From Thermoanaerobaculia bacterium (GTDB lineage: Bacteria > Acidobacteriota > Thermoanaerobaculia > UBA5066), in the NCBI GenBank assembly GCA_963816185.1, contig CAWFJJ010000028.1:384001-448000 (forward strand): DNA of 64,000 bases, read 5' to 3'. The notes under the pieces are model-generated. The model was not told the DNA's origin and made no database searches. It worked only from the letters and a program-made list of their open reading frames with translations. Every line of letters begins with the position of its first letter. The first letter of the stretch is position 1. Below are positions 11,744 through 57,540 of the stretch, one piece after another. The translations under genes and the position numbers were made by a program.

Positions 11744-12688
11744 ATGGCGAGAATCCGGACAGGAGTCGTGGGATGCGGCTATCTCGGCCGGCACCACGCT
11801 CGGATCCTCACGGAGCTCGCCGACTCCGAGCCCGTCGGCTTCGTCGAGCCGGACGACGCGACGGCGGCCACGATCGAGGCCGCGCACGGTCCGAAAGGAC
11901 TCGCTCGGAGGCCTTCCGTCAAAGAGCTCCTGGGAGCGGGCGCGATGGCGGTCGTGGTGGCGTCTCCGACCTCCACCCACGCCGCGGTGGCGGAAGAGCT
12001 CCTCGCCGGGGGCGCCGACGTCATGGTCGAAAAGCCGATCACGGTCACCCTGGCCGAGGCCGACCGTCTCGTCGCTCTCGCGCGGGCCAAGGGCCGCATC
12101 CTTCAGGTCGGCCACATCGAGCGCTTCAATCCGGCGGTGGCCGCCGTGCGCCCGCTCGTCACGGATGTGAAGTTCATCGAGGCGCACCGGCTCGGGGTCT
12201 TCGTCCCGCGCGCGCTCGACGTGGACGTCGTCCTCGACCTCCTCGTCCACGACCTCGACATCGCGCTCGACCTCGTGGGCAAGCCGGTCACGGAGATCCG
12301 GGCGGTCGGCGTGCCGATCCTGAGCGAGAAGATCGACATTGCCTCGGTGCGCCTTTCCTTCGAGGGCGGGTGCGTGGCGAACCTGACCGCCTCGCGCGTC
12401 TCACAGGACAAGACGCGGAAGTTCCGGTTCTTCCAGCCCGACTGGTACTTCTCGATCGACACTCAGCACCGGGATGTGACGGCATTTCGTCTCGACCGCC
12501 TCAGCGGCCCGCCGCGCATCGTGCCGTGGCCCGTGACGGTCGAGCCCGCGGATCCTCTCACCGCCGAGGACTCCGCGTTCCTGAAGGCCTGCGCGGAGCG
12601 CACCGAGCCGGAAGTGACGGGCGAAGCCGGCCGCGCGGCGCTCAAGCTGGCGCTCGACATTCTCGAGGAGATGGGGCGGGGACGATGA
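11744..12688 (+). CDS. Gfo/Idh/MocA oxidoreductase (GnnA-like)
   Basis: GVVGCGYLG, VEKPIT, QVGHIERFNPA, DVVLDLLVHDLD, NLTASRVS. Confidence 0.9.
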   Translation: MARIRTGVVGCGYLGRHHARILTELADSEPVGFVEPDDATAATIEAAHGPKGLARRPSVKELLGAGAMAVVVASPTSTHAAVAEELLAGGADVMVEKPITVTLAEADRLVALARAKGRILQVGHIERFNPAVAAVRPLVTDVKFIEAHRLGVFVPRALDVDVVLDLLVHDLDIALDLVGKPVTEIRAVGVPILSEKIDIASVRLSFEGGCVANLTASRVSQDKTRKFRFFQPDWYFSIDTQHRDVTAFRLDRLSGPPRIVPWPVTVEPADPLTAEDSAFLKACAERTEPEVTGEAGRAALKLALDILEEMGRGR

Positions 12689-13719
12689 AGAGAAAAGGGA
12701 ACAAGAACTCTTTCTTATATACGGCGGCTGCTGATGCAGCCGCCGATAGAAGAAAGTCTTCTCCCCGAATGGTCGATGTCAAGGGCGTGCTTCGCGCGCC
12801 GCGCAGCGGTCGCAGACCCTTGACATCGGCCATTCGGGGAATACGGTCGTCGACCAAGTCTTTGCGGCGCATCGGCCTCATCGGCGGCTCGGGTCTTTAT
12901 TCACTTCCCGGCCTCGAGATCACTCGCGAAATCGGGCTTTCGACGCCCTTCGGCGACCCCTCCGACTCTTTCTTTCTAGGAAGTCTCTCTTCGGTCCCTG
13001 TCGCATTTCTCGCGCGTCACGGACGTCACCATTCGTTCCTGCCTTCCGAGATCAACTACCGAGCGAACGTCTGGGGGTTCAGGAAGCTCGGCTGCTCGTG
13101 GCTTCTCTCGGCCTCGGCCTGCGGCTCGATGAAGGAGTCCTACGCGCCGGCCGACATCGTCCTGCCGGACCAGTTCCTCGACTTGACGAAGCGGCGCGTC
13201 TCGACGTTCTTCGGAGACGGCTGTGCGGCGCACGTGTCGTTCGCGCACCCCGTTTCGGCCGTTCTTCTCGACGCTGTGGAGGCGGCCGCGAAGGCGGAAG
13301 GGGCCGTGTGCCATCGAGGCGGAACGTACGTGTGCATCGAAGGACCCCAGTTCTCGACGAAGGCCGAGTCTCTGCTCTACCGTTCCTGGGGCGCGGACGT
13401 GATCGGGATGACGAACGCCACCGAGGCAAAGCTCTGCCGCGAGGCGGGGATCGGCTATGCGTCGATGGCGCTCGTCACGGACTACGACTGCTGGCACGAG
13501 GAGCAGGCCGCGGTCTCGGTGGAAGCTGTCCTCGACGTCCTGAAAAGAAACGCCGGCACCGCGAATCGCGTCCTCGCGAACGCCGTTCGCCGCCTCGACC
13601 CGGACAGCCCGAGCGACTGCGCGGACGCCCTCGAGTGGGCCGTTCTCACGCCGAGGAACCGGATCAGTCCCGCCGCCTCGAAGCGCCTCGCGCTTCTTCT
13701 GAACAAGGACGAGAGATGA
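12685..13719 (+). CDS. mtnP: S-methyl-5'-thioadenosine phosphorylase with a 59-aa repeat-derived N-terminal extension
   Basis: IGLIGGSGLY, FLARHGRHH, NYRANVW, EGPQFSTKAES, VIGMT, VTDYDCW; ATGA overlap with the upstream stop; alternative TTG start at 12862. Confidence 0.93.
   Translation: MKRKGNKNSFLYTAAADAAADRRKSSPRMVDVKGVLRAPRSGRRPLTSAIRGIRSSTKSLRRIGLIGGSGLYSLPGLEITREIGLSTPFGDPSDSFFLGSLSSVPVAFLARHGRHHSFLPSEINYRANVWGFRKLGCSWLLSASACGSMKESYAPADIVLPDQFLDLTKRRVSTFFGDGCAAHVSFAHPVSAVLLDAVEAAAKAEGAVCHRGGTYVCIEGPQFSTKAESLLYRSWGADVIGMTNATEAKLCREAGIGYASMALVTDYDCWHEEQAAVSVEAVLDVLKRNAGTANRVLANAVRRLDPDSPSDCADALEWAVLTPRNRISPAASKRLALLLNKDER
12711..12856 (+). repeat. Palindromic element copy 1 (hairpin A + T-shaped hairpin B)
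   Basis: A: CGGCGGCTGCTGATGCAGCCGCCG at 12722-12745; B: CCCCGAATGGTCGATGTCAAGGG..CCCTTGACATCGGCCATTCGGGG at 12763-12839. Confidence 0.95.
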
Positions 13720-14726
13720 CCGCACGCCGCATCGTCGTTACCGGGTCCGTCGCCTACGACTACCTGATGACCTTCCCGGGGAAATTCCTCGACGTCGTCA
13801 TCCCCGACCGCATGGACCGCCTCTCGGTGTCGTTCCTCGTGGACTCCATGCGGAAAGTGCGGGGGGGCGTGGCTCCGAACATCGCCTACACGCTCGCGCT
13901 CCTCGGCCTCAGGCCCCTCGTCATGGCGACGGCGGGCGTCGACGCGCTCGATTACAGCCGGTGGCTCTCCGAACAGGGGGTCGACACCTCATCCCTGCAC
14001 ATTTGCGACGATCTTTTCACGGCCTCGTTCTTCGTCTCGACCGACGAATCGCAGAACCAGATCGCGACGTTCTATGCGGGGGCGATGGCGCGGGCGGCGA
14101 CGCTGTCCTTCCGCGAGCTCTCGCCGAGCAGCGTGAGCCTCGCGATCATCGCGCCGAACGCTCCCGAGGCGATGGCGAAATACGCGACGGAGTGCCGCGA
14201 GCTCCACATCGCATTCGCGTACGACCCGAGTCAGCAGGTGGCGCGGCTTTCGGGTGACGAGATTCTCGAGGGGCTGCGGGGCGCGGCGATGCTCATCGCG
14301 AACGAGTACGAGTTCGGCGTCATCGAGCTCAAGACCGGCCTCTCGGAAGCCGCGGTCCTCTCGCACGTGCCGGTTCTCATCGTGACGCGAGGCGCCGAAG
14401 GTTCCACGATCGCGCTCCGGGGCGGCCAGCCGGAGGCTGCCGCCGGCGTGTCGACGTTCCGCATTCCGCCCGCCCGCCTCCGCGGGCCCGCAGTCGATCC
14501 GACGGGCGTGGGAGATGCGTTCCGCGGGGGCCTCCTTGCCGCACGCCACCACGGCCTGCCGTGGGAGGTCGCGGGCCGCGTGGGAAGCGTGGCAGCCGCC
14601 TACTGCCTGGAAGCCCTCGGACCGCAGCCACCGCGGTATGCCGTCGCCGACTTCATCGCGCGTTACGGCGAGAACTTCGGCTCCGAAGGAGCTCACTCGC
14701 GTGTCAGCGACCTCGCGCCGCGGTGA
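13716..14726 (+). CDS. PfkB-family carbohydrate kinase (adenosine kinase-like)
   Basis: TGSVAYD, GGVAPNIAY, DPSQQ, NEYE, VDPTGVGDAFRGG; follows mtnP. Confidence 0.9.
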   Translation: MTARRIVVTGSVAYDYLMTFPGKFLDVVIPDRMDRLSVSFLVDSMRKVRGGVAPNIAYTLALLGLRPLVMATAGVDALDYSRWLSEQGVDTSSLHICDDLFTASFFVSTDESQNQIATFYAGAMARAATLSFRELSPSSVSLAIIAPNAPEAMAKYATECRELHIAFAYDPSQQVARLSGDEILEGLRGAAMLIANEYEFGVIELKTGLSEAAVLSHVPVLIVTRGAEGSTIALRGGQPEAAAGVSTFRIPPARLRGPAVDPTGVGDAFRGGLLAARHHGLPWEVAGRVGSVAAAYCLEALGPQPPRYAVADFIARYGENFGSEGAHSRVSDLAPR

Positions 14727-14748
14727 AGCTGATACACTCCTGGGTCCA

Positions 14749-15246: not shown

Positions 15247-15264
15247 GAGCCGGACGGAGGACGC

Positions 15265-16598: not shown

Positions 16599-16634
16599 CG
16601 CCGCGCCTCTCCGTCGTTTACACTCGCCGACTCG

Positions 16635-19190
16635 ATGCAACGCACCGCGACGGCGACCACGAAGGCCGACGAAATCCTCAGGATCGAGGCGAAGTGGCGC
16701 GACCGCTGGGAGGCGGACCGCGCCGCATTCGTGGATACGACGAAGCCCGCGGGGGACGGAACATACCTCCTCGTCATGCTTCCTTATCCCTCGGGCGACC
16801 GCCTGCACGTCGGGCACGCGCGCACATATTTCCTGACCGACGCGCTCCAGCGCTTCCTGCGCCAGACGGGCGTGACCGTGTTCTGCCCGATGGGCTGGGA
16901 CGCGTTCGGCCTGCCTGCCGAGAACTACGCGATCCAGAAGGGCATCCATCCGCGCACCTCCACGCTCGCGAACATCGCGGCCATGAAGGAGCAGTTCCGG
17001 ACGTGGGGCGTTCTTTACGACTGGACGAAGGAAGTCACGACCTGCGAGCCCGAGTACTACCGCTGGAACCAGTGGTTCTTCCTGAGGCTCCTCGAAAAAG
17101 GCCTGGCGGTCCGCAGGAAGGCCGCGGTGAACTGGTGCCCGTCGTGCGAGACCGTCCTCGCGAACGAGCAGGCCGAGGGCGGCGTCTGCGACCGGTGCGG
17201 CACTGCGGTGGTGCCCCGCGAGCTCGAGCAGTGGTTCCTGAAGATCACCGACTACGCCGAGCGCCTGCTGGACGGCCTCGACACGCTCCGCAAATGGCCC
17301 GAGAAGGTCGTCACGATGCAGCGCAACTGGATCGGCAAATCCACGGGCGCCGATCTGGATTTCGCGATCCCGAAGCTGAACGAGACGGTCCGCGTCTTCA
17401 CGACGCGCCCGGACACCGTCTTCGGCGCCACGGCGCTCATCCTCGCGCCCGAGCACGCGCTCGTCCCGCGCCTTCTCGAGGGCCATCCGAAGCGGGCCGA
17501 GCTGGAGGCCTGGGTCAATTCCGTGCGCAGCCAGGAGCGCATCGTCCGCGAGGCCGAGGGAGCCGAGAAGGACGGCCGCGACACCGGCCGCACGGCGATC
17601 AACCCCTTCACGGGGAAGGAAGTGCCCGTGTGGCTCGCGAACTTCGTCATCGCCGACTACGGCACGGGCGCGCTCATGGCGGTACCCGCGCACGACACGC
17701 GCGACTTCGAGTTCGCGAAGAAGTACGGCATCCCCATCGTCAGGGTGATCGAAGAGGGGAAGAGAGAAAAGAAGGAAGATTTGCTTAGAAAGGAAGAGGG
17801 GGAGGGCGCAGCGGCGGCCAGCGGCGACGCGGCTTTGACAGGCCTTCCATACACGGGCGAGGGCCCGCTCATTGCCTCCGGACCATTCACAGGAATCTTC
17901 TCTTCTCTTGCCCGAGAATTCATCGCAGCCGATGCCGCGAATCGCGGCATCGGCGGGCCGCGCGTGCGGTATCGGCTCCGCGACTGGCTCATTTCGCGTC
18001 AGCGCTACTGGGGCACGCCGATTCCCATGATCCACTGCGAGAAGGATGGCTGGGTGAGTGTGCCGGAGAAGGACCTGCCGGTCGTGCTGCCGCCTGACGC
18101 GCCGTTCACGGGCAAGGGCGGCAATCCGCTCGAGAAGGTCGCTTCGTTCGTCCAGACGACGTGCCCTTCGTGCGGAGGCCCGGCCAGGCGCGAGACGGAC
18201 ACGATGGACACGTTCGTGGACTCGTCCTGGTATTTCCTCCGGTACATTGACCCGAAGAACGGCGCGGCGCCCTTCGATCCCGCAATCGTGAGGGAATGGG
18301 CGCCGGTCGACCAGTACATCGGCGGCATCGAGCACGCGATCCTCCACCTCCTGTACGCGCGGTTCTTCACCCGCATCCTGAAGGACCTCGGCCTCGTGAC
18401 GTTCGAGGAGCCGTTTTCGGCTCTCTTCAACCAGGGCATGATCACGCGCCTGTCCCCGACGGGCCGCGTGGAGAAAATGTCGAAGTCGCGGGGCAACTCG
18501 GTGTCTCTCGACTCGCTCATCGCGGAGAAGGGAGCCGACGCCGTGCGCGCGTTCGTCCTCTTCCTCGGGCCGCCGGAGAAGGACGCCGAGTGGAGCGACG
18601 AGGGCATCAGCGGGCCGGAGCGCTTCCTCTGGCGCGTGCGGGGCGCCGTGGACCGGTTCCTCGCGACGGGCGCCGATCCGCAAGCACAGCCGGCGGCGGC
18701 CGACACGCCCGCGGCGCGCGCGCGCCACATGGCGATCAAGAAGGTCACGGAGGACTTCCGGGCGTTCTCGTTCCACACGGCCGTGGCGCACCTCATGGAG
18801 CTGCTCAACGGCGCGGCGGTCCTCGTGAACGACGCGGGCGCGGACGCGGGGGAGACCGCGACGACGCTGCGCACGCTCGTCACGCTCCTCCATCCCATCG
18901 CGCCGCACCTGTCGGAGGAGCTGCACGAGAGGATGGGCGGCACGAAGAGCCTCCTTGCCTCGGGCTGGCCGACCTACGATCCGGCGCTCGCCGAGATGGA
19001 AGAGGCTTCGATCGCCGTGCAGGTGTCGGGGAAGGTGCGTGCCGAGATCAAGCTGAGAAGAGGATCTTCCGAGAAAGAGGCGCTGGCCGCCGCCCAGGCT
19101 GAGGCGGCGCTCTCGCGGTGGCTGGAAGGAAAGCAGATCGTCAAAACCATCTGGGTTCAGGATCGACTGTTGAACATCGTCGTGCGATGA
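16635..19190 (+). CDS. leuS: Leucine--tRNA ligase
   Basis: [51 protein letters not shown]. Confidence 0.98.
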
Positions 19191-19194
19191 GGAG

Positions 19195-19896
19195 ATGCTG
19201 CTTTCGGATTTTTCTGATATGCGGCGGCGGCTGATGCAGCCGCCGATGGATGGCAACGTGCCCTCGGCTGGCCGGAGTCAAGGGTCTTCGACCGCTACGC
19301 GGCGCGCGAAGCGCGCCCTTGACACCGACCAGCCGAGAGCTATCCCTCTCTCTTTTTCCTTCAAAGAAATCTCTCTTTCTTCTCTTTCCTTTCTTGTCTT
19401 TCTTGCCTTCGCTGCCTCTTCGTCCGGCTGCGGGTACACGCTCGTGGGGACCGGGTCGAGCGCGGTGCCCGTCGGCGTCAAGACGGTATACGTGCCGACG
19501 TTCATCAATGAGACGACGGTCGTGGGCCTCGAGCAGCGCCTCACGGACGCCGTCATTCGCGAGCTTTCCGCGCGTGGCCGTCTCAAGCCCGTGTCGGACA
19601 GGGGGGCGGCGGATTCGGAGCTGTCCGGGCAGCTGACATCCGCGTCGGTCGCCCCCGTCCGCTTCGACGCGAACGGAATCGCCGTCGAATATCAGGTGAC
19701 CGTTACCGGAAAGATCGTTCTCACCGAGAAGGCCACCGACAAGCCCATCTTCTCCGAGCCCGCTTACCTGTTCCGGCAGCCATACACCGTGCCGTCGAGC
19801 GCCAGCTCGTATTACGACCGAGAGCGCGAGGCCATCGAGGCGATGGCCCGCCCCTTCGCGCAGAACCTCGTCACGACGATCCTGGAAGGATTCTGA
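19195..19896 (+). CDS. lptE: LPS assembly lipoprotein LptE with a repeat-derived N-terminal extension
   Basis: SSGCGY lipobox at residue 79, VYVPTFINET..LEQRLTDAVIREL, ending ILEGF; directly after leuS. Confidence 0.85.
   Translation: MLLSDFSDMRRRLMQPPMDGNVPSAGRSQGSSTATRRAKRALDTDQPRAIPLSFSFKEISLSSLSFLVFLAFAASSSGCGYTLVGTGSSAVPVGVKTVYVPTFINETTVVGLEQRLTDAVIRELSARGRLKPVSDRGAADSELSGQLTSASVAPVRFDANGIAVEYQVTVTGKIVLTEKATDKPIFSEPAYLFRQPYTVPSSASSYYDREREAIEAMARPFAQNLVTTILEGF
19211..19375 (+). repeat. Palindromic element copy 2 (A + B with inverted interior, then TTCAAAGAA and a pyrimidine tail)
   Basis: A at 19211-19246; B CTCGGCTGGCCGGAGTCAAGGG..CCCTTGACACCGACCAGCCGAG at 19263-19337. Confidence 0.92.
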
Positions 19897-19995
19897 AAAA
19901 GGCGCGAGGAAACGTATCGGTTTCGCGGCGGCTGGTTTCTTGCCGATATCGAGTCTCACTCACATTCAGGATACAATGGCAGATGTTGAGAGGGA

Positions 19996-22571
19996 GTGAC
20001 GTCGCTCGTCTCCCTCCGTCGCGGGATTGCTGTCGCGTATTTGGGTAGCCAAACGGCGCGCGACCCGCTCCCCCTCATAGGGGGTCGTCTTGCGCGATAT
20101 CACGCTGCGAGAGCGGGCCGACGAATCGATTGAGAAGCTCGTCCGCGCCGTGGAGCAGGCGAAGAACGTCATCCTCATGACAGACCCGAACGGGACCATC
20201 ACGTACGTCAATCCCGCTTTCGAGGAGATCTACGGCTATTCCATGCAGGAGGCGCTCGGCAAGACGCCACGGATCCTGAAGAGCGGCCAACACGACAAGG
20301 ATTTCTACAAACGTTTCTGGCAGAGGCTGCTGGCCGGCGAAACGGTGCGAGAGCAGTTCGTCAACAAGACCCGAGATGGCCGGCTCGTCACCGTGGAAGG
20401 TCTCGTCAGTCCCGTCCTCGATGCCCAGGGGCAGCGCAGCGGTTTCATCGCCGTGCAGGAGGACATCACCGAGCGAAAGCGCTCCGAAGCGCGGATTCTG
20501 CAGCTCAACCGCCTCCTCAGGACGATCTCCGAGGTCAATCAGCTCATCGTCCGTGCGCAGGACCGCGCGGCTCTTCTCTCGGAGGCCTGTCGTGTTCTCG
20601 TGGACCACGGCGGCTTCGAGTTGGTCTGGATCGGTTTCGTCGACGCCGCGTCACAGGTTGTCGTTCCCGCGGCGCGAGCAGGTGTACGCCCCGAGTACCT
20701 CGCTGGAATCGTCGTCCGGTGCGACGACACGCCGGAGGGGCGAGGACCGGTGGGCACGGCGATCCGGACGGGACGGTTCGCCGTCGTGGAAGACGTCGAA
20801 ACGGATCCGTCGGCTGCTCCCTGGCGCGAGCGAATGCTCGCGTACGGGTTCAAGACCGTCGCGGCTTTTCCTATTCGGAGCGGGGGCGCCGTGAGGGGCG
20901 CTCTCGGGGTGTACGCCTCGAAAGCTGTTGAGATCGGCCACGAGGAAACGACTCTCCTCGACGAGCTCGCGCACGACATCGGTTTTGCGCTCCAATCGCT
21001 CGAGAACCGCGACGAGCGGCGTCGGGCCGAGGAGGCCCTGGCAAGAAGCGAGCTCTACTTTCGATCTCTCTTCGAGAACGCACAGGACATCATTACGGTC
21101 ATCGACGCCGGGGGACTGATCCTCTTCGAGAGCCCGTCCGTCGAGCGGATCATGGGGCTTCCGCCGGACGCGTACGTTGGAAAGAGCGCGTTCGAGTTCG
21201 TCCATCCCGACGACGTGGCCGCCGTTCAGGCCGCCCTGCAGCGCGCCTCCGCCAACCCGGGGCTGCCCCAGTCCGCACTGTTTCGCTTTCGCCACGCCGA
21301 CGGCTCCTGGAGGACCCTCGAGGGGATCGGCAGCCTCCTGACGGGCGAATCTTCTTTCCGGTTCGTGGTGAACTCCCGTGACGTGACCGAAAGCCGCGCC
21401 CTGGAGCAGCAGCTTCGGCAGGCACAGAAGATGGAGGCCGTCGGGCGGCTTGCGGGCGGAGTGGCGCACGACTTCAACAACCTGCTGACCGCGATCCTGG
21501 GCTATTCGGACCTGCTGGCGGGGCAGGCCGGCGAGGGGAGCCCGCTGCGGGAATCCATCGAGGAGATCCGAAAAGCGGGGGAACGGGCCGCTTCGCTCAC
21601 TCGGCAGCTCCTGGCCTTCAGCCGCAAGCAGGTTCTGGAGCCCGTGGTGCTGCGGTTGAACGACCTGGTCGAAAACGTCGAGAAAATGCTGCGGCGCGTG
21701 ATCGGAGAGGACGTACGGCTGGTCACGCGTCTGGGCGACTCCGTGGGCAACGTCCGGGCGGATCCGGGACAGCTCGAGCAGGTGATCGTGAACCTCGCCG
21801 TCAACGCCCGTGACGCCATGCCGAAGGGCGGCACGCTGACGATCGAGACGGCCGATGTCGAGCTGGACGGCGTCTACGCGCAGAGACACGCCATGGTTCC
21901 TCCCGGCCGCTACACGATGCTGGCGGTCAGCGACACGGGCGTCGGGATGGATGCGGCCACGCAGGAGAGGATCTTCGAGCCCTTCTTCACGACGAAGGAG
22001 AAGGGCAAGGGCACGGGCCTCGGGCTCTCGATGGTATACGGCATCGTCAAGCAGTCAGGGGGATACATCTGGGTCTACAGCGAACCGGGGAAGGGGACGA
22101 CCTTCAAGGTGTATCTGCCGACGGTCGGGGAAGGCGGTCTCGGATCTTCCAGCGAGATCCGCGGAGTTTCATCCGGCCGTCGGAGCCGAAACGGTCCTGC
22201 TCGTCGAGGACGAGCCGGCGATCCGCACTCTCGCCCGCCGGGTTCTCGTGGAGCGCGGCTACCGCGTGCTCGAGGCGGGCAGCGGGACGGACGCCCTGGA
22301 ACAGGTCCGCGCAGAAAAGGGGCCGATTCACCTGCTCCTCACGGACCTCGGGATGCCGGACATGGGCGGAATGGAGGTCGCATCCGGCGTGCAAGAGCTT
22401 CATCCAGACATCCGCGTGCTCTTCATGTCCGGGTATACCGACGACGGGGTGGTCCGCAACGGGCTCCTCGAACCGAGACGGGCTTTCCTGCAGAAGCCCT
22501 TCACGCCGTCCGCCCTTGCGCGCAAGGTGCGCGAGGTGCTGGACGCGCCTGAGCAAGGCTCGGCCGCCTGA
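19996..22571 (+). CDS. Hybrid sensor histidine kinase (PAS-GAF-PAS-HisKA-HATPase-REC); frameshifts near 20080 and 22165
   Basis: [30 protein letters not shown]; receiver [23 protein letters not shown] in ORF 21855-22571; TACAAT and AGGGAG precede GTG 19996. Confidence 0.88.
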
Positions 22572-22575
22572 GCAC

Positions 22576-23124
22576 TCACTTCCCGGCAGGGCGGGGGCTG
22601 CCTGTTTCCAGAAAGTTCTTGAGCCTTCCCACCTGCTCGCCGACCACTTCGTCCACGATCGGCGCGATCTTCTCGAATCCTCCCGCCATATAGCCGCCGA
22701 TGCCGTACGTGACCACGAGCTTCGTGCCATCTTCGGCTTTCGCGAGGTCCCACGTCATGCTCCCGGCGAGCCCCAGGCCCTGAAGGGGGCCGATGGCGCC
22801 GGTCATGCGCAGCGCCTTGCCCGGGCCTGCGTAGACGACGGTCATGTGCTGGACCCCGCCGCCGTCCGGGAACCTCTCGCAAAAGCAGCCGCCCGGAACG
22901 GCGGCGATCGAGAGGTTCCTGGCATCGTGTGAAAACGTGTGCTCCGGATTCCACCAGCTCCCTACCTTCGCGGTGAGCGTGTCGTAGACGACTCCGGGGG
23001 TGGCCTTGATCGCGACTTCGTGCTTCACGGCGAAACCGCTCGGGCCGACGCTCATGACTTCCGCGGAAAGGGGCGCGGAGAGAAGCGCCACCGCGCAGAC
23101 CAGAATGGATGGAAGTTCTTTCAT
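22576..23124 (-). CDS. Exported SRPBCC/START-like domain protein
   Basis: Signal peptide MKELPSILVCAVALLSAPLSA; WWNPEHTFS, GGCFCE, GAIGPLQGLG. Confidence 0.75.
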   Translation of the reverse strand: MKELPSILVCAVALLSAPLSAEVMSVGPSGFAVKHEVAIKATPGVVYDTLTAKVGSWWNPEHTFSHDARNLSIAAVPGGCFCERFPDGGGVQHMTVVYAGPGKALRMTGAIGPLQGLGLAGSMTWDLAKAEDGTKLVVTYGIGGYMAGGFEKIAPIVDEVVGEQVGRLKNFLETGSPRPAGK

Positions 23125-23182
23125 TTCTGATATTCGGGGCTGCTGATGCAGCCCCGATAGTAGAAACTCTTCTCGCGAGAGC
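23124..23182 (+). repeat. Palindromic element copy 3 (hairpin A only; B replaced by a 10-bp palindrome)
   Basis: TTTCTGATATTCGGGGCTGCTGATGCAGCCCCGATAGTAGAAACTCTTCTCGCGAGA. Confidence 0.88.
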
Positions 23183-23183
23183 T

Positions 23184-23459
23184 TTATTTCGCGGCGGCTT
23201 TTTTCGCCTTGTTCACGGTCTTCGAAATCCGCGATTTCAGGCGGGACGCCGTCTTCCTGTGGAGGACGCCTTTGCGGACGGCGACGTCGAGCTCGGAGAC
23301 CGCGTTCGAGAGGAAGCTGCCGACCTTTTCGGCGTCGGTTTCCGCCGTCCTGCGGAGATTCTTCACGACGTTGCGGACCTGGGTGACGACGGAGCGGTTG
23401 CGGGCCCGGCGGCGGTCGCTCTGCGCGGCGCGCTTCTTGGCTTGCTTGGTGTTCGCCAT
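23184..23459 (-). CDS. rpsT: 30S ribosomal protein S20
   Basis: MANTKQAKKRAAQSDRRRARNRS..KGVLHRKTASRLKSR. Confidence 0.97.
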   Translation of the reverse strand: MANTKQAKKRAAQSDRRRARNRSVVTQVRNVVKNLRRTAETDAEKVGSFLSNAVSELDVAVRKGVLHRKTASRLKSRISKTVNKAKKAAAK

Positions 23460-24950: not shown

Positions 24951-26369
24951 TCATTCTAGCGTCTTGATCCACGAGGGGGAAAAATTGTTCCCGGAAGAGG
25001 TCACGATGCGGGGCGTGCCGCCGCCGTCCGCGTTTCCGACGGCGATCTGGGTCGAGCTGCCGCGCTGCACATCCCAGGCGATCTTCGATCCGTCCGGCGA
25101 CCACGTAGGGCTCTCGTGGGCGCCCGGCCCGCTCGAAATCTGCACGGTTCGCCCGGTTGCGAGGTCCATGACACAGATCTGGAAATCGCCCTCGTTCCGG
25201 CACGCGAACGCCATCCGCCCCCCGTCCGGCGAGAAAGTCGCCTCGTCGTTCCAGTTCCCGGCGAGCGAGACCCGACGCACGTTCGCACCCTCGAGGTCCA
25301 TCATGAAAATCTGGGGCGTGCCCTGGCGGTTCGACGTGAACGCCAGCTCGCGCCCGTTCGGGGACCACCGGGGCGTCGAGTCGATCGCCACGTTCTCGGT
25401 GAGCCGTTTCAGGTTCGAGCCGTCCGTCTGGACCGTGAAGATCTCGGTGTTCCCCTTCACGCTTCCGCAGAAGGCGATCGTCTTGCCGTCCGGGGAGAAG
25501 GACGGGGACGCGTTGAGCTGCGTCGGGACGCGAATCTGACGCTTGTCGCCTCCGTCCTTCCCGATGAGCCACAGGCCCGGCGTATCCTTCTCATACGACT
25601 GGTACACGATCTTCGCCCCGTCGGGAGACCAGTCCGGCGCGAGCGACAGCGTGTTCGAATAGGTGATCCGGCGCTGGTTGTCGCCGTCGAAGTCCATCGT
25701 GTAGATCTCCTTCACGACGTTCTTCCCCGCGACCCGGTCGCGGTCGGACGAAAAGGCGATCTTCGTCAGGAACGGCCCGGGTTTGCCCGTGAACTGGCGT
25801 ACGAGGTCGCTCGCGAGCGTGTGCGCGATGCGGCGCGCCGCCCGCATCTCGCCGGAGTACTTTCTGCCCATGATGGACTTGAGCGTGCTGAGATCCCAGA
25901 GAGTCGCCTCGACGACGACGCCCCCGCCGTCCGGCGCGAGGTGCGTATCGAGCAGGAACTGCGCCGACGTGGCTTTCCACGCGTCGCCCTCTTCGCGATT
26001 TTGGGGCGGGCGCATCCCCTTCGGGTAAAGAGCCGGATCGGCCACGACGAAGACGCCGGAGCCGGCGAGGTCGTCGGTGAGCGTCGTGTAGAAAGGATCC
26101 ACGGCCCGCGTCTGAAGGTCCGGCGAGATCGGCGCGACCGTCATCGGAATCGCCAGCGGCCGGCGTGCTCCGGTGGCTCCGGTGAGCGTGAGATCGATGT
26201 TCGAGGGCTGCGAGATCCCGGACATGGTCGGAACGGGCTTCGGCGCCTGGCCGAGAAGGGGCGTCGCCGCCAGAGCGAACAAGAGCGCTACGAGCGAGGA
26301 CCGGGGAGAGATATTTCTGATATTCGGGGTTCCTGATGCAGCCGCCCGGGGAAGGGATTCTTTTCTCAT
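24951..26369 (-). CDS. tolB: Tol-Pal beta-propeller protein TolB
   Basis: TolB_N region plus WSPDG repeats; upstream of pal. Confidence 0.93.
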   Translation of the reverse strand: MRKESLPRAAASGTPNIRNISPRSSLVALLFALAATPLLGQAPKPVPTMSGISQPSNIDLTLTGATGARRPLAIPMTVAPISPDLQTRAVDPFYTTLTDDLAGSGVFVVADPALYPKGMRPPQNREEGDAWKATSAQFLLDTHLAPDGGGVVVEATLWDLSTLKSIMGRKYSGEMRAARRIAHTLASDLVRQFTGKPGPFLTKIAFSSDRDRVAGKNVVKEIYTMDFDGDNQRRITYSNTLSLAPDWSPDGAKIVYQSYEKDTPGLWLIGKDGGDKRQIRVPTQLNASPSFSPDGKTIAFCGSVKGNTEIFTVQTDGSNLKRLTENVAIDSTPRWSPNGRELAFTSNRQGTPQIFMMDLEGANVRRVSLAGNWNDEATFSPDGGRMAFACRNEGDFQICVMDLATGRTVQISSGPGAHESPTWSPDGSKIAWDVQRGSSTQIAVGNADGGGTPRIVTSSGNNFSPSWIKTLE

Positions 26370-26594
26370 ATGCGGCGGCTGCTGATGCAGCCGCCGAATA
26401 CTTGAAATCTGCTTCCCGAATGGCCGATGTCAAGGGCGCGCTTCGCGCGCCGCGGAGCGGTCGCGGACCCTTGACATCGGTCATTCGGGGAATACGGCCT
26501 CTCTGCAAAATCTCTTCTCTTCCTCCTTTCCTTTCTTCCACTTCTAAGAAAATCCTCTTCTTCTCTTCTTCTTTGTCTTTCAAAGAATTCCCCT
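26314..26594 (+). repeat. Palindromic element copy 4 (degenerate A + A + B + pyrimidine tail with two TTC-N3-GAA cores)
   Basis: A' at 26314-26347, A at 26373-26396, B at 26413-26492, TTCTAAGAA at 26542, TTCAAAGAA at 26579. Confidence 0.95.
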
Positions 26595-27392
26595 TCACTG
26601 GAATTTCAGATGCACGCCGAGCGACTCGTTCCGGTAATCCGGCGGGAGCGGCGGGAGCGGGTTCGCGGCGTAGACGGCGCGCGCCGCGGCGCGGTCGTAG
26701 TAGCTCACGCCGGAGGACGAGTCGATCTTGACGTCCGTCACCTGTCCGGAGCGCAGGATGCGGAACGAGATGACGCAGCTCGTGCCTTCGGCCGACTCCG
26801 GCTTGAACCAGTTCGCGCCGATGAGCGAGAGGAGCTGCTCCACGTAGTACGAGAAGGGGAAGTCGGCGTCGAACGAGGTGACGGATGCCCCGAAGGAGAC
26901 ACCCTCGCCCGAGGTGCTGCCGTTCGCGGCGCCCGCGGCGCTCGGGAGCTCGAGAGCGGGCCCGCCGGGCTTCGCGGCGCCCGGAGCGGGCTTCGGTTTC
27001 TCGGGCTTCGCGTGCTTCTTCGGCTCGGGCATCGCTTTCGCGGAGGGCTGGACTTTTTCCGTGGGCTTCTCGATGACGGGCTTTGCCTTCGGCGCCGGCG
27101 CCGGCTCAGCGGGCGCCGCCACGGGGGCGGGAGCGGGCGGGGCCTGGGGCCGGCCGAGGGAGGCCGGGCTCACGACACGGACGGGCAGGGACATCGGGAC
27201 GAAGACCGGCGCCTTGCGCGGCTTGCCGATGAGGAGAACGAGCGCGAGGAAGGCCGCGTGGCCGAGGATCGAGACGGCGACCGTCAGGGACCGCGGGGGA
27301 AGGCCGGTGTGCGATCGCCGCGCGAGGATGTCCGAGACGGTGGGCGCGGGAAGAGCCTCCGCGCGCGCGGTCACCGTGCTCATCGCCGTCAT
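26595..27392 (-). CDS. TonB/TolA family energy transducer
   Basis: TM helix with SILGH, Pro/Lys linker, C-terminal SSG..YDRAAARAV..PLPPLP; in the tol operon. Confidence 0.88.
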   Translation of the reverse strand: MTAMSTVTARAEALPAPTVSDILARRSHTGLPPRSLTVAVSILGHAAFLALVLLIGKPRKAPVFVPMSLPVRVVSPASLGRPQAPPAPAPVAAPAEPAPAPKAKPVIEKPTEKVQPSAKAMPEPKKHAKPEKPKPAPGAAKPGGPALELPSAAGAANGSTSGEGVSFGASVTSFDADFPFSYYVEQLLSLIGANWFKPESAEGTSCVISFRILRSGQVTDVKIDSSSGVSYYDRAAARAVYAANPLPPLPPDYRNESLGVHLKFQ

Positions 27393-50453: not shown

Positions 50454-50466
50454 TTCGAAACCGCGA

Positions 50467-50472
50467 TAAACT
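50467..50472 (+). promoter_or_regulatory. Putative -10 box of rnpB
   Basis: TAAACT 5 nt before the P1 helix of RNase P RNA. Confidence 0.55.
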
Positions 50473-50477
50473 GCGCA

Positions 50478-50881
50478 TGACTCGGGCCGGACAGGCGGTC
50501 GCCGCTCTCGACGCTTCGGCGGAAGGAGGGGAGGAAAGTCCGGACTCCCGCGGGCAGCGTGCCGGAGAAATTCCGGTCGGGGCAACCCGAAGGAAAGTGG
50601 CACAGAAAACACACCGCCGACGCGCCGCAAGGCGCAGGTAAGGGTGAAAAGGTGCGGTAAGAGCGCACCGCGGTTCCGGCAACGGGACCGGCAGGCGAAA
50701 CCCCACGCGGAGCAAGGCCAAATAGGGTGACGGAAGGGGCGCCCGCCCCCGCGGTTTCGGCCGACGTCACCGGGTCGGTCGCTCGAGCCCGTTCGAAAGA
50801 GCGGGCCTGGAGGAATGACCGCCGGCTGGAAGGCGCGAGCCGACCGGTTACAGAATCCGGCTTATCGTCCGGCCCGAGTCA
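50478..50881 (+). ncRNA. rnpB: RNase P RNA (type A)
   Basis: GAGGAAAGTCCGG, GGTAAGGGTGAAAAGGTGCGGTAAGAGCGCACC, GAGCAAGGCCAAATAG, ACAGAATCCGGCTTA; P1 TGACTCGGGCCGGAC/GTCCGGCCCGAGTCA. Confidence 0.97.
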
Positions 50882-50885
50882 CTCT

Positions 50886-50913
50886 CCGGGGGCTTGGCTT
50901 CGCGCGCCCCCGG
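50886..50913 (+). terminator. Hairpin after rnpB
   Basis: CCGGGGGC..GCCCCCGG stem; no U-tract. Confidence 0.4.
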
Positions 50914-50969
50914 CCCCCCGGCTGCGGCGCACATCGAAGTCATCCGGCTTCGGCTAAACTCCCCGGACC

Positions 50970-51752: not shown

Positions 51753-51757
51753 GAGAG

Positions 51758-53947: not shown

Positions 53948-53982
53948 CGCGCGTTCCGGGTTAACATCCGCCGCCGCGCGGT

Positions 53983-54648
53983 GTGACCGCGCCCGAAGGC
54001 GCCGTGGACCCGCAAAAAACGCTCGAAATCATCATCCAGATCGTCGTGCTGCTCTTCGCCGTCTCGTTCCACGAGTCGGCTCACGGCTACGTGGCGATGA
54101 AGTGCGGCGACAACACGGCCCGCGACCTCGGGCGCATCACGATGAATCCGCTCAAGCACCTCGATCCGATCGGCAGCCTTCTTTTCCCGGCCTTGCTCGC
54201 GTTCTCGGGCCTGCCCGTCTTCGGCTGGGCGCGGCCGGTGCCTGTCTCGCTGCGCGGCGTGCGGAACCCGCGCCGCGCGAACCTCCTCGTGTCGGCGGCG
54301 GGGCCCCTGTCGAACGTGCTGCTGGCCGTCATCTTCGGGTTCGCTTTCGCGATCCTCAAGCGCTTTTTTCTCGTGGACGGCGATCCGGCGATCTTGCAAC
54401 CGCTGTTTCTCGTCGCGGGAGCCTCGGTGCTGGTCAACGCTTCTCTGGCGATCTTCAACCTGCTGCCGATTCCTCCGCTGGACGGATTCGGCGTCGTGGA
54501 GAGCCTGGCGCCTCCGACCGCCATCCCCTCGATCATCTTTCTGCGGCGGTATGGATTCATCATCCTCATCGTGCTGATGTTCACCGGAGTCCTCGGGTTC
54601 ATCATGCGACCCGTCCAGAATCTCGTCATCCAGTGGCTGAGGTCCTGA
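53983..54648 (+). CDS. Site-2 protease (M50) family protein
   Basis: HESAH, AGPLSN, FNLLPIPPLDG. Confidence 0.93.
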   Translation: MTAPEGAVDPQKTLEIIIQIVVLLFAVSFHESAHGYVAMKCGDNTARDLGRITMNPLKHLDPIGSLLFPALLAFSGLPVFGWARPVPVSLRGVRNPRRANLLVSAAGPLSNVLLAVIFGFAFAILKRFFLVDGDPAILQPLFLVAGASVLVNASLAIFNLLPIPPLDGFGVVESLAPPTAIPSIIFLRRYGFIILIVLMFTGVLGFIMRPVQNLVIQWLRS

Positions 54649-55644
54649 TGTCCGCCGTTTCGAGGAGAGTCGTTCTCTCCGGCCTCCGCCCGACGGGCCG
54701 CGTCCACCTCGGGAACTACTGGGGAGCGGTGAAGAACTGGGTGGATCTGCAGGCCGACTACGACTGCCGGTATTTCGTCGCCGATCTCCATGCGCTCACG
54801 ACCGACTACGCGGACACCTCCGCGATCCGCGAGTCGACCCTCGAGGCCGTGACGGACTGGCTCGCGGTCGGCCTCGACCCCGAGAAGTCGGTGATCTTCG
54901 TGCAATCGCGCGTCCCGCAGACGGCGGAGCTGGCGCTCGTCTTCGGGATGATCACGCCCCTCGGCTGGCTCGAGCGCGTGCCGACCTACAAAGAGCAGAT
55001 CGAGCAGCTTCGCGAGCGCGACCTCGGGACGTTCGGATTCCTCGGCTATCCGGTTCTCATGACGGCCGACATCGCGCTCTACCGCGCGCATTACGTGCCG
55101 GTCGGCAAGGACCAGGAAAGCCACCTCGAGATCTGCCGCGAGATCGTCCGGCGCTTCAACGGCTTCTACGGCGACGTCTTCCCCGAGCCGCAGCCGCTCT
55201 TCACGGCCACGCCGAAGGTGCCGGGGCTCGACGGCCGGAAGATGTCGAAGACCTACAACAACGCGATCGCCCTCTCCGACTCGGCGGCCGAGGTCGAGAA
55301 GAAGGTCATGAGCATGGTCACCGACCCCGGCCGCGCGCGGCGCGCCGACCCGGGGAATCCGGACGTCTGCAACCTCTACCCGTTCCACCTCCTCTACTCG
55401 CCCCCCGAGGAGCAGAAGGTCGTGGACTTCGAGTGCCGCACGGCGGCGCGCGGCTGCGTCGACTGCAAGAAGCACCTCATCCGCAACATGAACGCCGCGC
55501 TCGAGCCCATCCGGCAGAAGCGCGCGGAGATCACGGCGAAAAAAGACTTCGTGAAGAGACGTGCTCGAACAGGGCAGCGCGAGAGCGAGAGATATTGCTT
55601 CGGAGACCATGGAGAGGGTTTCTGATGCGATGAAGTTGCTGTGA
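54648..55644 (+). CDS. trpS: Tryptophan--tRNA ligase; frameshift near 55556
   Basis: SGLRPTGRVHLGNY, YPVLMTADI, VPVGKDQ, KMSKT; C-terminus VLEQGSARARDIASETMERVSDAMKLL in the shifted frame. Confidence 0.96.
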
Positions 55645-55949
55645 TGTACGGCCAGGAAGATTCTCTTAGAAGGGTTAATGAGCGCGGCGCTCGGTCGCGC
55701 GGTGGAGCGGCGACCAGCCCTCTTCACTTTCTAAGAGGAATTAGATTCGGATCTCTTATATGCGGCGGCTGCTGTGCAGCCGCCGATAGTAGAAAATCTT
55801 TCGCTCGAATGGCCGGCGTCAAGGGCGCGCGTAGCGCGCCGCTAAGCGGTCTTCGACCCTTGACTCCGGCCGTTCGAGCGACGTCCGCCCCTCTTCACTT
55901 TCTAAGAAATCTTCATCCTCTTCTTCCTCTTTCTTCTTCCAATGGCTGA
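55641..55949 (+). CDS. Repeat-derived bridging ORF (102 aa) between trpS and scpA
   Basis: Start overlaps the trpS TGA (GTGATG); stop lies just past the scpA ATG (ATGGCTGA); contains element copy 5. Confidence 0.45.
   Translation: MMYGQEDSLRRVNERGARSRGGAATSPLHFLRGIRFGSLICGGCCAAADSRKSFARMAGVKGARSAPLSGLRPLTPAVRATSAPLHFLRNLHPLLPLSSSNG
55656..55940 (+). repeat. Palindromic element copy 5 (inverted TTCTWAGA pair, A, B, tail)
   Basis: A at 55763-55785, B at 55801-55881, 19-bp direct repeats at 55718-55736 and 55889-55907. Confidence 0.95.
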
Positions 55950-56748
55950 AGGAATCCGCATCCCCGTCCCCGCCGGTGCCGACCTCATGGGGCCGTACCC
56001 GGTGAAGCTGCCGCAGTTCGAGGGGCCGCTCGACCTGCTGCTGCACCTGATCCGGAAGAACGAGCTCGACATCCGCAACCTGCCGCTCGTCGACATCTGC
56101 CGCCAGTACCACGAGTACCTGGTCCTCATGCAGGAGCTCGACCTCGAGGTCGCGGCCGAGTTCCTCTACGTCGAGGCGATGCTCGTGCACATCAAGTCGC
56201 AGCTGGTCCTGCCGCGCGCGGCCGCGGGCGCGCCCGAAGGGGACCCGCGCGACGAGCTCGTGAGGCGCCTTCTCGAGTACCGCAAGTACAAGGGCGTCGC
56301 CGAGTCGCTGCACGAGATGGAAGCCGTGCGGCTCGGGCTCTGGAGCCGTGCGCCGGCGAAGCTCGAGACGCCGGAAGGGGAGGCCGAGGAAGCGGACCTT
56401 TCGGAAGTCTCGCTCTTCGACCTCCTCACGTTCTTCAAGGGCGCGCTCGACCGCTACCGCGCGCAGCACCCGCCCTCGATGGAGATCGAGCACCAGAAGT
56501 TCTCCATCAAGGAGAAAATGGAGCAGATGCTCGCGCGCGTGAAGTCCGGGGGTGGGCCGCTGCCGCTGTCGGACGTCTTCCGCTCTCTTTCGGGCCGGGC
56601 CGAGGCCATTGCGATCTTCCTCGCCGTCCTCGAGCTTCTCCGCCTCCGTGTCGTCAAGGCGCGGCAGGAAGGCGAGTTCAACGAGATCTACCTCGACTCG
56701 ACGGGCGAGACCGCGTCGCTCGAAGGTTACGAGGAGGCCTACCGGTGA
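55942..56748 (+). CDS. scpA: Segregation/condensation protein A
   Basis: FEGPLDLLLHLI, AAEFL..IKS, DPRDELVRRLLEY, FLAVLEL. Confidence 0.96.
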   Translation: MAEGIRIPVPAGADLMGPYPVKLPQFEGPLDLLLHLIRKNELDIRNLPLVDICRQYHEYLVLMQELDLEVAAEFLYVEAMLVHIKSQLVLPRAAAGAPEGDPRDELVRRLLEYRKYKGVAESLHEMEAVRLGLWSRAPAKLETPEGEAEEADLSEVSLFDLLTFFKGALDRYRAQHPPSMEIEHQKFSIKEKMEQMLARVKSGGGPLPLSDVFRSLSGRAEAIAIFLAVLELLRLRVVKARQEGEFNEIYLDSTGETASLEGYEEAYR

Positions 56749-57362
56749 CGACGCACGTCGCCCTCCTCGAGGCGCTCCTCTTCGCGTCGGGCAAGCCGGC
56801 GACCGTCGAGCGCCTCGCCGAGGCCGCCGAGATCTCCAAGGAAGAGGTCGAGACCGCGCTCGAGGCGCTCGAAAAGGCGTGCGAGACCGACGGGCGAGGC
56901 GTGCGCGTCGACCGCGTCGCGGGCGGCGCGCGCCTCGTCTCGCGCAACGAATACGACCTGCCCGTCCGCAACCTGCTCGGGCTGGAGGGAAAGAACAAGC
57001 TCTCGATGGCGAGCCTCGAGGTGCTTTCGATCGTCGCGTATCGCCAGCCGGTCACCGCGCCCGAGATCGCCGAGCTCCGCGGCGTGAACTCGGCCTCCTC
57101 GCTGCGCACCCTCCTCGACAAGAAGCTCATCACGACCGCGGGGCGCAAGGAGGTCGTCGGGACGCCGTTCCTCTACAAGACGACCCGGGAGTTCCTCGTC
57201 CACTTCGGCCTCGCGGACCTGAAAGACCTCCCGCGCCCGGAGGACCTCGACGCGCTCTACGGGGTCGAGGCGAACACGGCGCAGACGGAATTGTTCCCAG
57301 AGGAGATTTCTGCTGAAGAGAAGAGGGAAGAAGAGGAAGAGGAAGATTCGGGGAATGGTTGA
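56745..57362 (+). CDS. scpB: Segregation/condensation protein B
   Basis: LEALLFAS, LEVLSIVAYRQPVT..RGVNS, FLVHFGL..LKDLP. Confidence 0.96.
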   Translation: MTTHVALLEALLFASGKPATVERLAEAAEISKEEVETALEALEKACETDGRGVRVDRVAGGARLVSRNEYDLPVRNLLGLEGKNKLSMASLEVLSIVAYRQPVTAPEIAELRGVNSASSLRTLLDKKLITTAGRKEVVGTPFLYKTTREFLVHFGLADLKDLPRPEDLDALYGVEANTAQTELFPEEISAEEKREEEEEEDSGNG

Positions 57363-57540
57363 AGACCGTAGTTCCCGAATGACCGATGTCAAGGGTCTTA
57401 GACCGCTGCGCGGCGCGCGAAGCGCGCCCTTGACATCGGCCATTCGGGAAGAAGATTTTCTACTATCGGGGCTACATCTGCTTCCTCATATCGAAGAAAT
57501 ATTTATTCCCGGGCAGCCGCCGCTCTTGGGGATCGCATGA
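57355..57540 (+). CDS. Repeat-derived bridging ORF (61 aa) between scpB and rluB
   Basis: ATG overlaps the scpB end (ATGGTTGA); stop overlaps the rluB start (ATGA); contains element copy 6. Confidence 0.45.
   Translation: MVEDRSSRMTDVKGLRPLRGARSAPLTSAIREEDFLLSGLHLLPHIEEIFIPGQPPLLGIA
57356..57522 (-). repeat. Palindromic element copy 6 (reverse orientation; degenerate A)
   Basis: B TTCCCGAATGACCGATGTCAAGGG..CCCTTGACATCGGCCATTCGGGAA at 57372-57450; A remnant at 57451-57500. Confidence 0.93.

Follow-up and report, generated by a model that had tools for sequence, protein, structure and literature searches.

The window analyzed here is a stretch of 64,000 nucleotides from a Thermoanaerobaculia bacterium (GenBank assembly GCA_963816185.1, contig CAWFJJ010000028.1; C28:384001-448000), and it carries six copies of a structured palindromic repeat that is built from two different hairpins, A and B, and lies at junctions between genes. 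An initial annotation of the window had reported these copies and had proposed that they are either a non-autonomous mobile element or a conserved cis-structure outside any named family. All six were found in the window sequence where that annotation had placed them, and we refined their limits by reading the sequence together with nhmmer matches. The assembly comprises 5.09 Mb in 30 contigs, has a G+C content of 67% and is, like all the genomes with which it was compared, a metagenome bin.

Copy 1 (12707-12850, plus strand) contains hairpin A at ~12711-12759 and hairpin B at 12763-12839, followed by the tail AATACGGTCG, and corresponds to the nhmmer match C28:396707-396850 (154 bits). It lies in the sense direction between a GFO/IDH/MocA oxidoreductase gene and a PNP_UDP_1 (nucleoside) phosphorylase gene, both on the plus strand (here and below, neighboring genes were identified with Pfam). 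Copy 2 (19207-19345, plus strand), whose hairpin A is followed by hairpin B at ~19262-19337, is in sense between leuS and lptE, both plus-strand genes. The core of its hairpin B has the orientation that we term flop, as opposed to the flip orientation in copies 1, 4, 5 and 6. In correction of the initial annotation, the inner part of hairpin B in copy 2 is the reverse complement of that in the others. Copy 3 (23122-23177, plus strand) consists of hairpin A alone, in its short CGGGG variant and with the tail GATAGTAGAAAC; it was matched by nhmmer with 34 bits over model positions 6-64 and is antisense to its neighbors, a hypothetical gene and rpsT on the minus strand. A 3.3-kb stretch at 19895-23186, containing a PAS/GAF histidine kinase gene and a hypothetical gene, is missing in several relatives (e.g., G017), and by the match coordinates it ends on the right at the solitary hairpin A that forms copy 3.

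Copy 4 (26358-26499, plus strand; 149 bits) has hairpin A at 26358-26409, hairpin B at 26413-26492 and the tail ATACGGCC, and is antisense between a tolA-like (TonB_2) and a tolB-like gene on the minus strand. A decayed extra hairpin A (tatttctgatattcggggttcctgatgcagccgccc, ~26312-26349, plus strand), recognized by eye and without a score of its own, precedes it in an A'-A-B arrangement. Copy 5 (55750-55888, plus strand; 133 bits), with hairpin A followed by hairpin B at 55801-55881, is in sense between a class I tRNA synthetase gene (tRNA-synt_1b) and scpA, both on the plus strand, and has a 19-nt direct repeat, CCCTCTTCACTTTCTAAGA, on either side (55718-55736 and 55888-55906; score 19 versus a shuffled maximum of 8.5). 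Copy 6 (57362-57501, minus strand; 139 bits) has hairpin B at 57372-57450, in flip with respect to the A of the same copy, which is decayed and spans 57453-57499; it is antisense between scpB and a pseudouridine synthase gene, both on the plus strand. Three of the six copies are therefore antisense to local transcription, since copies 3 and 4 lie between minus-strand genes and copy 6 is reversed between plus-strand genes. As had also been reported, the window encodes no transposase: none of its 57 scanned predicted proteins has a transposase Pfam family.

The element is ~140 nt long, with its two hairpins in the fixed order A then B. At the base of hairpin A is an AT-rich stem, GATTTCT...AGAAATC, above which follow an internal loop, a TAT/ATA pairing, a bulged base, a GC stem of 10 bp and a TGAT loop. 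The hairpin occurs as two discrete variants, CGGCGGCTGC/GCAGCCGCCG and CGGGGCTGC/GCAGCCCCG, that are one base apart per arm, and the loss of one base from both arms noted earlier (CGGCGG/CCGCCG versus CGGGG/CCCCG) is a recurrent variant that also changes between orthologous copies. Hairpin B has an outer stem of ~15 bp, whose sequence is specific to each place, around an invariant core in which GTCAAGGG and CCCTTGAC enclose three mini-hairpins; its interior is T-shaped, with TGTCAAGGG/CCCTTGACA followed by GGCGCGC-nnn-GCGCGCC, GC-nnn-GC and GGTC-nnn-GACC. A conserved tail, RAATAYSS, follows hairpin B, and conservation beyond it is at background level. When copy 4 was folded (26355-26500), plus-strand RNA formed two hairpins at -87.5 kcal/mol (z = -8.87) and minus-strand DNA reached -53.2 kcal/mol (z = -9.25), with none of 200 shuffles folding as well as either. 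Other modular arrangements in the family are A alone, A-A-B and A-B-A.

Covariation supports this fold. We aligned 66 distinct flip-type copies, four from the window and 62 from other genomes of several species, and the earlier report of covarying stems was borne out: 16 of the 51 written-out pairs have changes on both sides. The compensated cells numbered 169, compared to 58.0 +/- 7.1 in shuffles (0 of 500 as high) and 16-37 in controls in which the partners were slid by 1-3 columns. Pairing was kept in 94.9% of cells over the 51-pair structure and in 95.5% within the hairpin B helix, where 14 of 21 pairs of the long helix show double changes. RNAalifold predicted 42 pairs, 15 of them with compensated double changes. 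Forty-seven columns are invariant in all 66 copies and nearly all of these are within the stem of A and the core of B. Thus the outer stem is variable in sequence while its pairing is kept, and the core is fixed letter by letter. This invariant core, and the persistence of copies near the family consensus while their flanks diverge, speak for the part of the initial proposal that envisaged a conserved cis-structure.

The copies in the genome under study resemble their best paralogs with a median identity of 0.90 and a maximum of 0.95 when the core is excluded, and orthologous copies in other genomes are 0.70-0.97 identical, exceeding every paralog in only 11 of 34 comparisons. There is thus neither a recent burst nor drift like that of the surrounding intergenic DNA; either selection or gene conversion holds the copies at consensus. 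Mismatches of the G-U type outnumber those of the A-C type on the element's own strand, by 83 to 44 when the core is flip and by 39 to 17 when it is flop. Split by transcription, antisense copies have 57 to 21 and sense copies 34 to 24, and the excess sits at a few positions that are shared by descent. Selection at the mRNA level was considered as an explanation and rejected: the excess does not track the transcribed strand and is present in antisense copies too, so it does not reflect selection on the host mRNA.

The two orientations of the B core relative to hairpin A are exact reverse complements of each other. Among 155 copies, 107 are flip, 46 flop and two unclear. Twenty-two places in the genome under study have orthologous copies with both flanks matched, and at 12 of them both core orientations are found; copy 6, for example, is flip and its ortholog in another genome (L013) is flop. 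The outer arms of flipped orthologous pairs are on average 0.80 identical, compared to 0.65 for non-orthologous pairs (95th percentile 0.88). A clear case is C24:525702 versus L061, in which an unusual arm, CGATTG(A/G)CCCG...CGGGCCAATCG, is common to both copies and the core is inverted. The invertible segment is ~31-37 nt long and is located between arms of at least 21 bp.

These dimensions recall the small inversions of plastid DNA, which span 5-50 bp and are bounded by inverted repeats of 11-24 bp, according to the available text of PMC12928735, with reference to Kim and Lee (2005). In both cases a short segment between inverted repeats is found in both orientations at the same place, recurrently and among related genomes, as far as that source describes the plastid events. 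The two differ in that the inverted segment here is the conserved, structured core of a dispersed bacterial chromosomal repeat, for which the mechanism is inferred. On that analogy, the flips are most likely hairpin-mediated inversions. A surface-level search of the literature found no bacterial repeat family with such flips, and we know of no description of core inversion between species in families of repetitive extragenic palindromes (REPs) or of bacterial interspersed mosaic elements (BIMEs).

A profile built on five of the window copies and run over the whole assembly gave 51 non-overlapping matches (best E = 1.9e-45), confirming that further copies exist outside the window. Forty-six matches are full length, with both hairpins; they represent 44 distinct places, because two of them are on contig C14, which duplicates part of C24. 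The partial matches consist of hairpin A alone (three, copy 3 among them) or of the 3' half of hairpin B. More generally, several small contigs repeat parts of large ones at identities of at least 90% (e.g., C14 versus C24, at C24:140572-155345), and the bin contains redundant or second-strain sequence. At the gathering score of Rfam, only RNase P RNA was identified in the window and the element had no match; with copy 4 as the query and E values up to 10 allowed, the best match was mir-599, at 19 bits against a threshold of 94. The view that the element corresponds to no named family was thus upheld for Rfam.

The distribution of the repeat is narrow. An exact-pattern scan of one genome per prokaryotic species found at least 100 stretches, and among the 80 matches listed, 70 are from Thermoanaerobaculia/Acidobacteriota bins and the remaining 10 from a single bin labelled Acidithiobacillales, which we attribute to a problem of labelling or binning. 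BLAST matched 13 of the 18 other genomes in the genus, with 0 to >50 matches each and few or none in some close relatives. Beyond the genus, BLAST gave only marginal matches (E ~1e-4), one of them in G019, an unpublished genome. A covariance model made from the alignment and scanned across the class matched 20 of the 151 genomes sampled: in the bacterium's own family 11 of 16 genomes matched, representing four genera, and in one other family 8 of 20 did so weakly (E 1e-6 to 1e-9), with no matches in the remaining 15 families of the class. Viral contigs and plasmids had no matches either. The repeat is therefore confined to one family-level lineage of the Thermoanaerobaculia, uncultured and from soil, with weaker relatives in a second family.

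Presence of the repeat differs among orthologous junctions, and relatives with short or repeat-free junctions, for which the initial annotation had proposed a search, were found. At the place of copy 1, 22 of 29 loci (28 relatives and the genome under study) were resolved: A+B is present in two (the genome itself and G007), a different repeat in five, and spacers of 9-75 nt in 15. At the leuS-lptE junction of copy 2, resolved in 16 of 20 relatives, A+B was found in one (G008), the other repeat in 10 and a gap of 59-83 nt in five. The ortholog in G008 has compensated stem changes relative to copy 2 (GGCTGG/CCAGCC versus GGATGG/CCATCC). Copy 4 has an ortholog in G007, and other relatives have 12-80 nt between the flank matches. 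Conversely, 46 listed copies of relatives map to places without a copy in the genome under study, and several of these are clean insertions when compared with a tight gene junction.

The leuS-lptE junction (19190-19445 in the window, compared with loci L148-L167) has further peculiarities. In three of the five relatives with a gap there (those with 59 nt), which are free of the repeat, leuS and lptE overlap by a GTGA or ATGA stop/start. G003 and G011 have the other repeat at this junction, placed in frame between that GTG and the LptE signal peptide. In the genome under study, the lptE frame can be followed back across the whole of copy 2 to an ATG at 19195.

The repeat that often occupies junctions without A+B belongs to a second hairpin family, whose ends are AGATTTCTTYGAA...TTCRAAGAAATCT. 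The motif TTCTAAGAA occurs 172 and 165 times on the two strands of the genome under study (~340 with relatives of the motif), in a genome of 67% G+C, with no fixed relation to gene starts. Within the window, the second family is also present at 55718-55741, 55888-55912, 26535-26560 and 19350-19375. The basal stem of hairpin A, GATTTCT...AGAAATC, is identical to the ends of the second family, and one junction may hold A+B, the second repeat or nothing, depending on the genome. This would be explained if both were small non-coding cassettes swapped by site-specific recombination, with the crossover at a shared palindrome, GATTTCTT...AAGAAATC; different inserts bounded by the same motif at the same junctions, the absence of a target duplication and the one copy whose 19-nt flanking direct repeat ends in the shared motif would also fit. 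However, no recombinase is linked to the copies, long flanking direct repeats were found around only 4 of 46 of them, and the motif, short and AT-rich against a GC-rich background, is also just the stem base common to several hairpin families, such that we regard a cassette system as very doubtful.

Some copies are inside a gene. G007 has two A+B copies 1.3 kb apart within a UvrA-family gene (L201, G007:C2:593000-595000), near which the G007 assembly seems to be frameshifted, as suggested by its 53% completeness in six contigs. An independent short-read bin (L041:5385-7999, plus strand) has the same two copies in an open reading frame (ORF) that is uninterrupted across both and as far as the locus extends (871 aa read) and encodes UvrA and ABC domains on both sides of the inserts. 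The ORF reads the element on its antisense strand and each copy adds ~47 residues. The UvrA-family protein of the genome under study (L204, C30:383700-386850; 1004 aa) is 88% identical and lacks both A+B inserts, and has shorter peptides from the second repeat family at exactly these two places. REPs have been described inside uvrA genes, twice per gene, in other phyla (available text of PMC3733652). Palindromic repeats placed twice in frame in uvrA-type repair genes are thus now known from an unrelated lineage as well.

Most copies are truly intergenic. The expectation that they lie at stop/start junctions of co-oriented genes held within the window and did not extend to the genome as a whole or to the in-gene copies of relatives: of the 45 full copies with both neighbors called, 35 are between co-directional, six between divergent and four between convergent genes. 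The co-directional pairs have 20 copies in sense and 15 antisense, and over the genome and its relatives together (125 copies) 47 are sense, 55 antisense, 12 convergent and 11 divergent. Therefore, the orientation of the element is independent of transcription. Core orientation also showed no association with transcription direction (Fisher p = 0.20, with copies that are not independent of each other). In co-directional pairs the element is near the upstream stop codon, typically within 6-70 nt and in either orientation, and is farther from the next start. In 10 of 33 co-directional pairs in the genome under study, the element can be read through in the frame of the downstream gene, which is about the level expected by chance; a preference for in-frame placement with the downstream gene was rejected on this count, and the same count indicates that most copies are intergenic.

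The proximity to upstream stop codons raises the question of whether the element could be a selected, cis-acting RNA structure of operon mRNAs rather than selfish DNA, serving in either orientation as a U-tract-free terminator, a 3'-end stabilizer or a processing site. Clusters of hairpins within 80 nt of stop codons have been proposed as terminators without a U-tract, according to the available text of PMC8355165, which would suit the observed spacing. An outer stem that keeps its structure and not its sequence, and copies that persist at orthologous places across species, point the same way. However, a scan of the copy 4 region (26250-26600) for intrinsic terminators, i.e., a GC-rich hairpin followed by a T-run, found none on either strand, and no terminator-like site was detected in the copy 4 consensus scan. 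Termination would moreover be polar, because copies are in the tightly coupled, conserved pairs leuS-lptE, tolA-tolB and scpB-pseudouridine synthase. A pure hairpin function also leaves the letter-perfect 47-column core unexplained, the G-U excess is on the element's own strand and not on the transcribed strand, and copies are present within the translated UvrA-family ORF. On balance we consider such an RNA function unlikely.

Could the element instead be a portable promoter, which re-starts downstream transcription after insertion into an operon? In such a scheme, CCCTTGACA in the 3' arm of B would serve as the -35, and the conserved tail would supply a weak -10, TACGGT/TATCCG, 16 nt farther downstream. 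The perfect TTGACA is invariant, conservation outside the hairpins is confined to the tail RAATAYSS, and copies 1, 2 and 5 face the next gene; a new promoter would be useful at leuS-lptE, where insertion parts genes that overlap in three relatives. However, a sigma-70 scan found no promoter in copy 4 despite the perfect -35, and orientation relative to the downstream gene is random (47 sense versus 55 antisense). The conservation of TTGACA is explained by the palindrome, since the stem repeats the motif in mirror form on the other strand, and the would-be -10 of distant relatives, read by eye, is inside the outer stem and not -10-like. A promoter role is accordingly very unlikely in our estimation.

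We regard as highly improbable that the copies are a family of small RNA genes of ~140 nt, each transcribed separately. Their strong covarying fold and the G-U over A-C ratio of ~2 to 1 on the element's own strand would be expected of such genes. On the other hand, neither promoter nor terminator was found at their ends, Rfam had no match, some copies lie within an ORF, copies are retained when their core is inverted, and the G-U excess is at a few positions shared by descent.

Mobility was examined through the enzymes and insertion footprints that it might leave. The initial suggestion of a non-autonomous mobile element holds insofar as the repeat is dispersed, is restricted to a lineage and varies in copy number and presence, and is not supported in two of its specific forms. 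The first form was a REPIN, which would depend on a REP-associated tyrosine transposase (RAYT): the genome under study has no RAYT, and the Y1 genes of the genus have unrelated ends. Four such genes were found, at L143-L146 (G038, G018, G031 and G014), between inverted repeats of 15-24 bp that start with GGGGTCAGGTCT and are ~950 bp apart. These ends are unrelated to the element, whose profile had no match there at E values up to 10. Their arrangement resembles the tyrosine transposases of Acidobacteria flanked by terminal inverted repeats, as depicted in the available text of PMC3733652. Neither a GTAG nor a CGTC tag is conserved in the 66-copy consensus, in which the letters after GATAG vary.

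The second form was a miniature inverted-repeat transposable element (MITE), against which stand the lack of a target-site duplication and of an insertion sequence (IS) with matching ends. Flanking direct repeats beat shuffles in only 4 of 46 copies, and those four are 11-39 nt long and irregular, the 19-nt repeat of copy 5 among them. Comparisons of filled and empty sites revealed no short duplication either, with the proviso that the element ends are not sharply defined and very short duplications could escape notice. Two ISs were identified in the genome, both with ends unrelated to the repeat: an IS110-type element (1.47 kb; at least six copies, at C25:393088-394564 and five other places; 99% identical), whose flanks are also unrelated, and a 1.33-kb IS with TGAATCGCCCCGG ends at C5:223789-225119 and at least three other places. 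A search for IS91 carries no weight either way, as its control was silent. The genome has one reverse transcriptase gene, which likewise has no established link to the copies. As potential partners, RAYT, IS110 and TnpB were all rejected, none being linked to copies of the repeat.

Composite arrangements were also rejected. The gene thrS, located between two inverted copies (C30:221080 and 223217), is part of an ordinary thrS-infC-rpmI-rplT stretch. The 1.3-kb and 2.9-kb stretches between paired copies in G007 contain, respectively, a segment of the UvrA-family gene and CorA and adenine deaminase genes, with no transposase. An integron attC site, with a core of the form RYYYAAC...GTTRRRY, is not matched by eye by TGTCAAGGG/CCCTTGACA, and the flanks of the repeat are syntenic housekeeping genes.

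Taken together, these results lead us to favor, as probable though far from certain, the reading that the element represents a lineage-specific family of structured palindromic repeats of the same kind as REPs, BIMEs and Rickettsia palindromic elements (RPEs), non-coding, non-autonomous and composed of two modules. Copies would be laid down at gene junctions, occasionally in frame within genes, by a copying process that leaves no target duplication and whose enzyme would be encoded away from the copies. They would then be kept at consensus by selection on the fold and core, by gene conversion between copies, or by both. The B core is a likely site of recognition by a protein, and it would flip in place when the stem arms on its two sides recombine or when synthesis switches template from one arm to the other, as described for plastid DNA.

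Several observations weigh against this reading. No Y1/RAYT gene (PF01797) was found in the genome under study and only 4 of 29 genus genomes have one; TnpB is also absent from the genome, and a screen of its incomplete sequence found no parent IS with the terminal inverted repeats of the element. Absence of transposases is weak evidence, because every genome examined is a metagenome bin, and mobile genes are frequently missing from such bins. Outside the core, copies within the genome are at most 0.95 identical to one another, thus there is no sign of recent copying. The flip to flop ratio of 107 to 46 is not the 1 to 1 expected of free, fast flipping, and some flips may be re-insertions or conversions, because outer-arm identity falls to 0.36. 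Likewise, differences in presence may partly be replacement or loss, because the same junction often holds the second repeat. Lastly, the gene positions used outside the window are those of crude codon-model gene calls.

The broad features of REPs and BIMEs are all present in the family: 46 full copies, 35 of 45 between co-directional genes, and mosaic arrangements. According to the available text of PMC3733652, REP/BIME and GTAG- or CGTC-tagged REP families are likewise palindromes present in many copies outside genes, chiefly where neighboring genes are co-directional and a short way downstream of coding regions. The same text describes variable copy number among related genomes, mosaic modules, occasional in-frame copies in DNA-repair genes (including double uvrA insertions) and some families without a dedicated transposase. 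RPEs are mentioned there as well. The element differs in being ~140 nt rather than 20-40 nt, four to five times longer, and in combining two distinct hairpins, always in the same order, with a three-way-junction core; it also lacks a conserved GTAG/CGTC tag, and its genome has no RAYT.

Other known systems are similar in part. Rickettsia palindromic elements are palindromic repeats of ~100-150 nt found between genes and also in frame within protein-coding genes, to which they add a peptide. The initial comparison with RPEs is apt with respect to size and to the in-frame copies in the UvrA-family ORF of relatives, and less so in that most copies here are intergenic and that sequence and host are unrelated. 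MITEs such as the Correia elements of Neisseria form hairpins, are found at gene junctions in either orientation and are co-transcribed with their neighbors. They are comparable to the element in size, hairpins and insertion at junctions, and differ in that neither a target-site duplication nor a parent IS was identified here. The T-shaped inverted terminal repeats of adeno-associated virus consist of a long stem around two or three small palindromes, the inner part of which occurs as flip and flop. Here the likeness is of shape only, as the element is not at the end of a linear replicon and no Rep/HUH gene was found.

A more specific scheme can also be drawn up, which we offer as a distinctly unlikely one. 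The core would be the recognition or processing site of a putative structure-specific DNA enzyme, encoded elsewhere or lost from the bins, with copying via a folded single-strand intermediate; flip and flop would then be a footprint of hairpin resolution, as in parvoviral terminal repeats, and not of passive recombination. If so, hairpin repeats could spread independently of RAYTs, and stand-alone A+B elements would be tied to the B-like hairpins that accompany genes for 23S-rRNA-intervening-sequence proteins in the sister family.

Those hairpins are the weak matches in the second family of the class. They keep TGTCAAGGG/CCCTTGACA and the T-shaped interior, with different mini-hairpins, and are located within a larger perfect palindrome that has a Shine-Dalgarno sequence and an ATG on both arms. 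They adjoin genes of PF05635 (23S-rRNA-intervening-sequence protein/four-helix-bundle; E 1e-11 to 8e-16) and were found at L194, L198 and L199 (G088, G128 and G157) and also at L174-L193, with up to 12 copies per genome. A search of the literature for PF05635/TIGR02436 with palindromic repeats returned nothing relevant. In the genome under study, the sole PF05635 match (28.5 bits, below the cut-off) was rejected as a partner, as it is not near any copy and has no B-like hairpin. The hairpins beside PF05635 genes can be regarded as a lead on the origin of the repeat and not as a functional finding.

The family is new in sequence and in several properties within the REP/BIME/RPE kind, and our literature search found no description of such repeats in the Thermoanaerobaculia. 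It adds a repeat family supported by covariation to a class of Acidobacteriota that is known almost only from metagenome bins. For a bacterial interspersed repeat, the combination of a letter-fixed core in a freely covarying stem, recurrent inversion of that core at one chromosomal position and swapping with a second repeat family is unusual. In practical terms, these repeats account for broken contigs, spuriously long ORFs and what look like N-terminal extensions at gene junctions during assembly and annotation. Elsewhere in the window, at 50483-50880 on the plus strand, is the bacterial class A RNase P RNA, identified with 265.8 bits.

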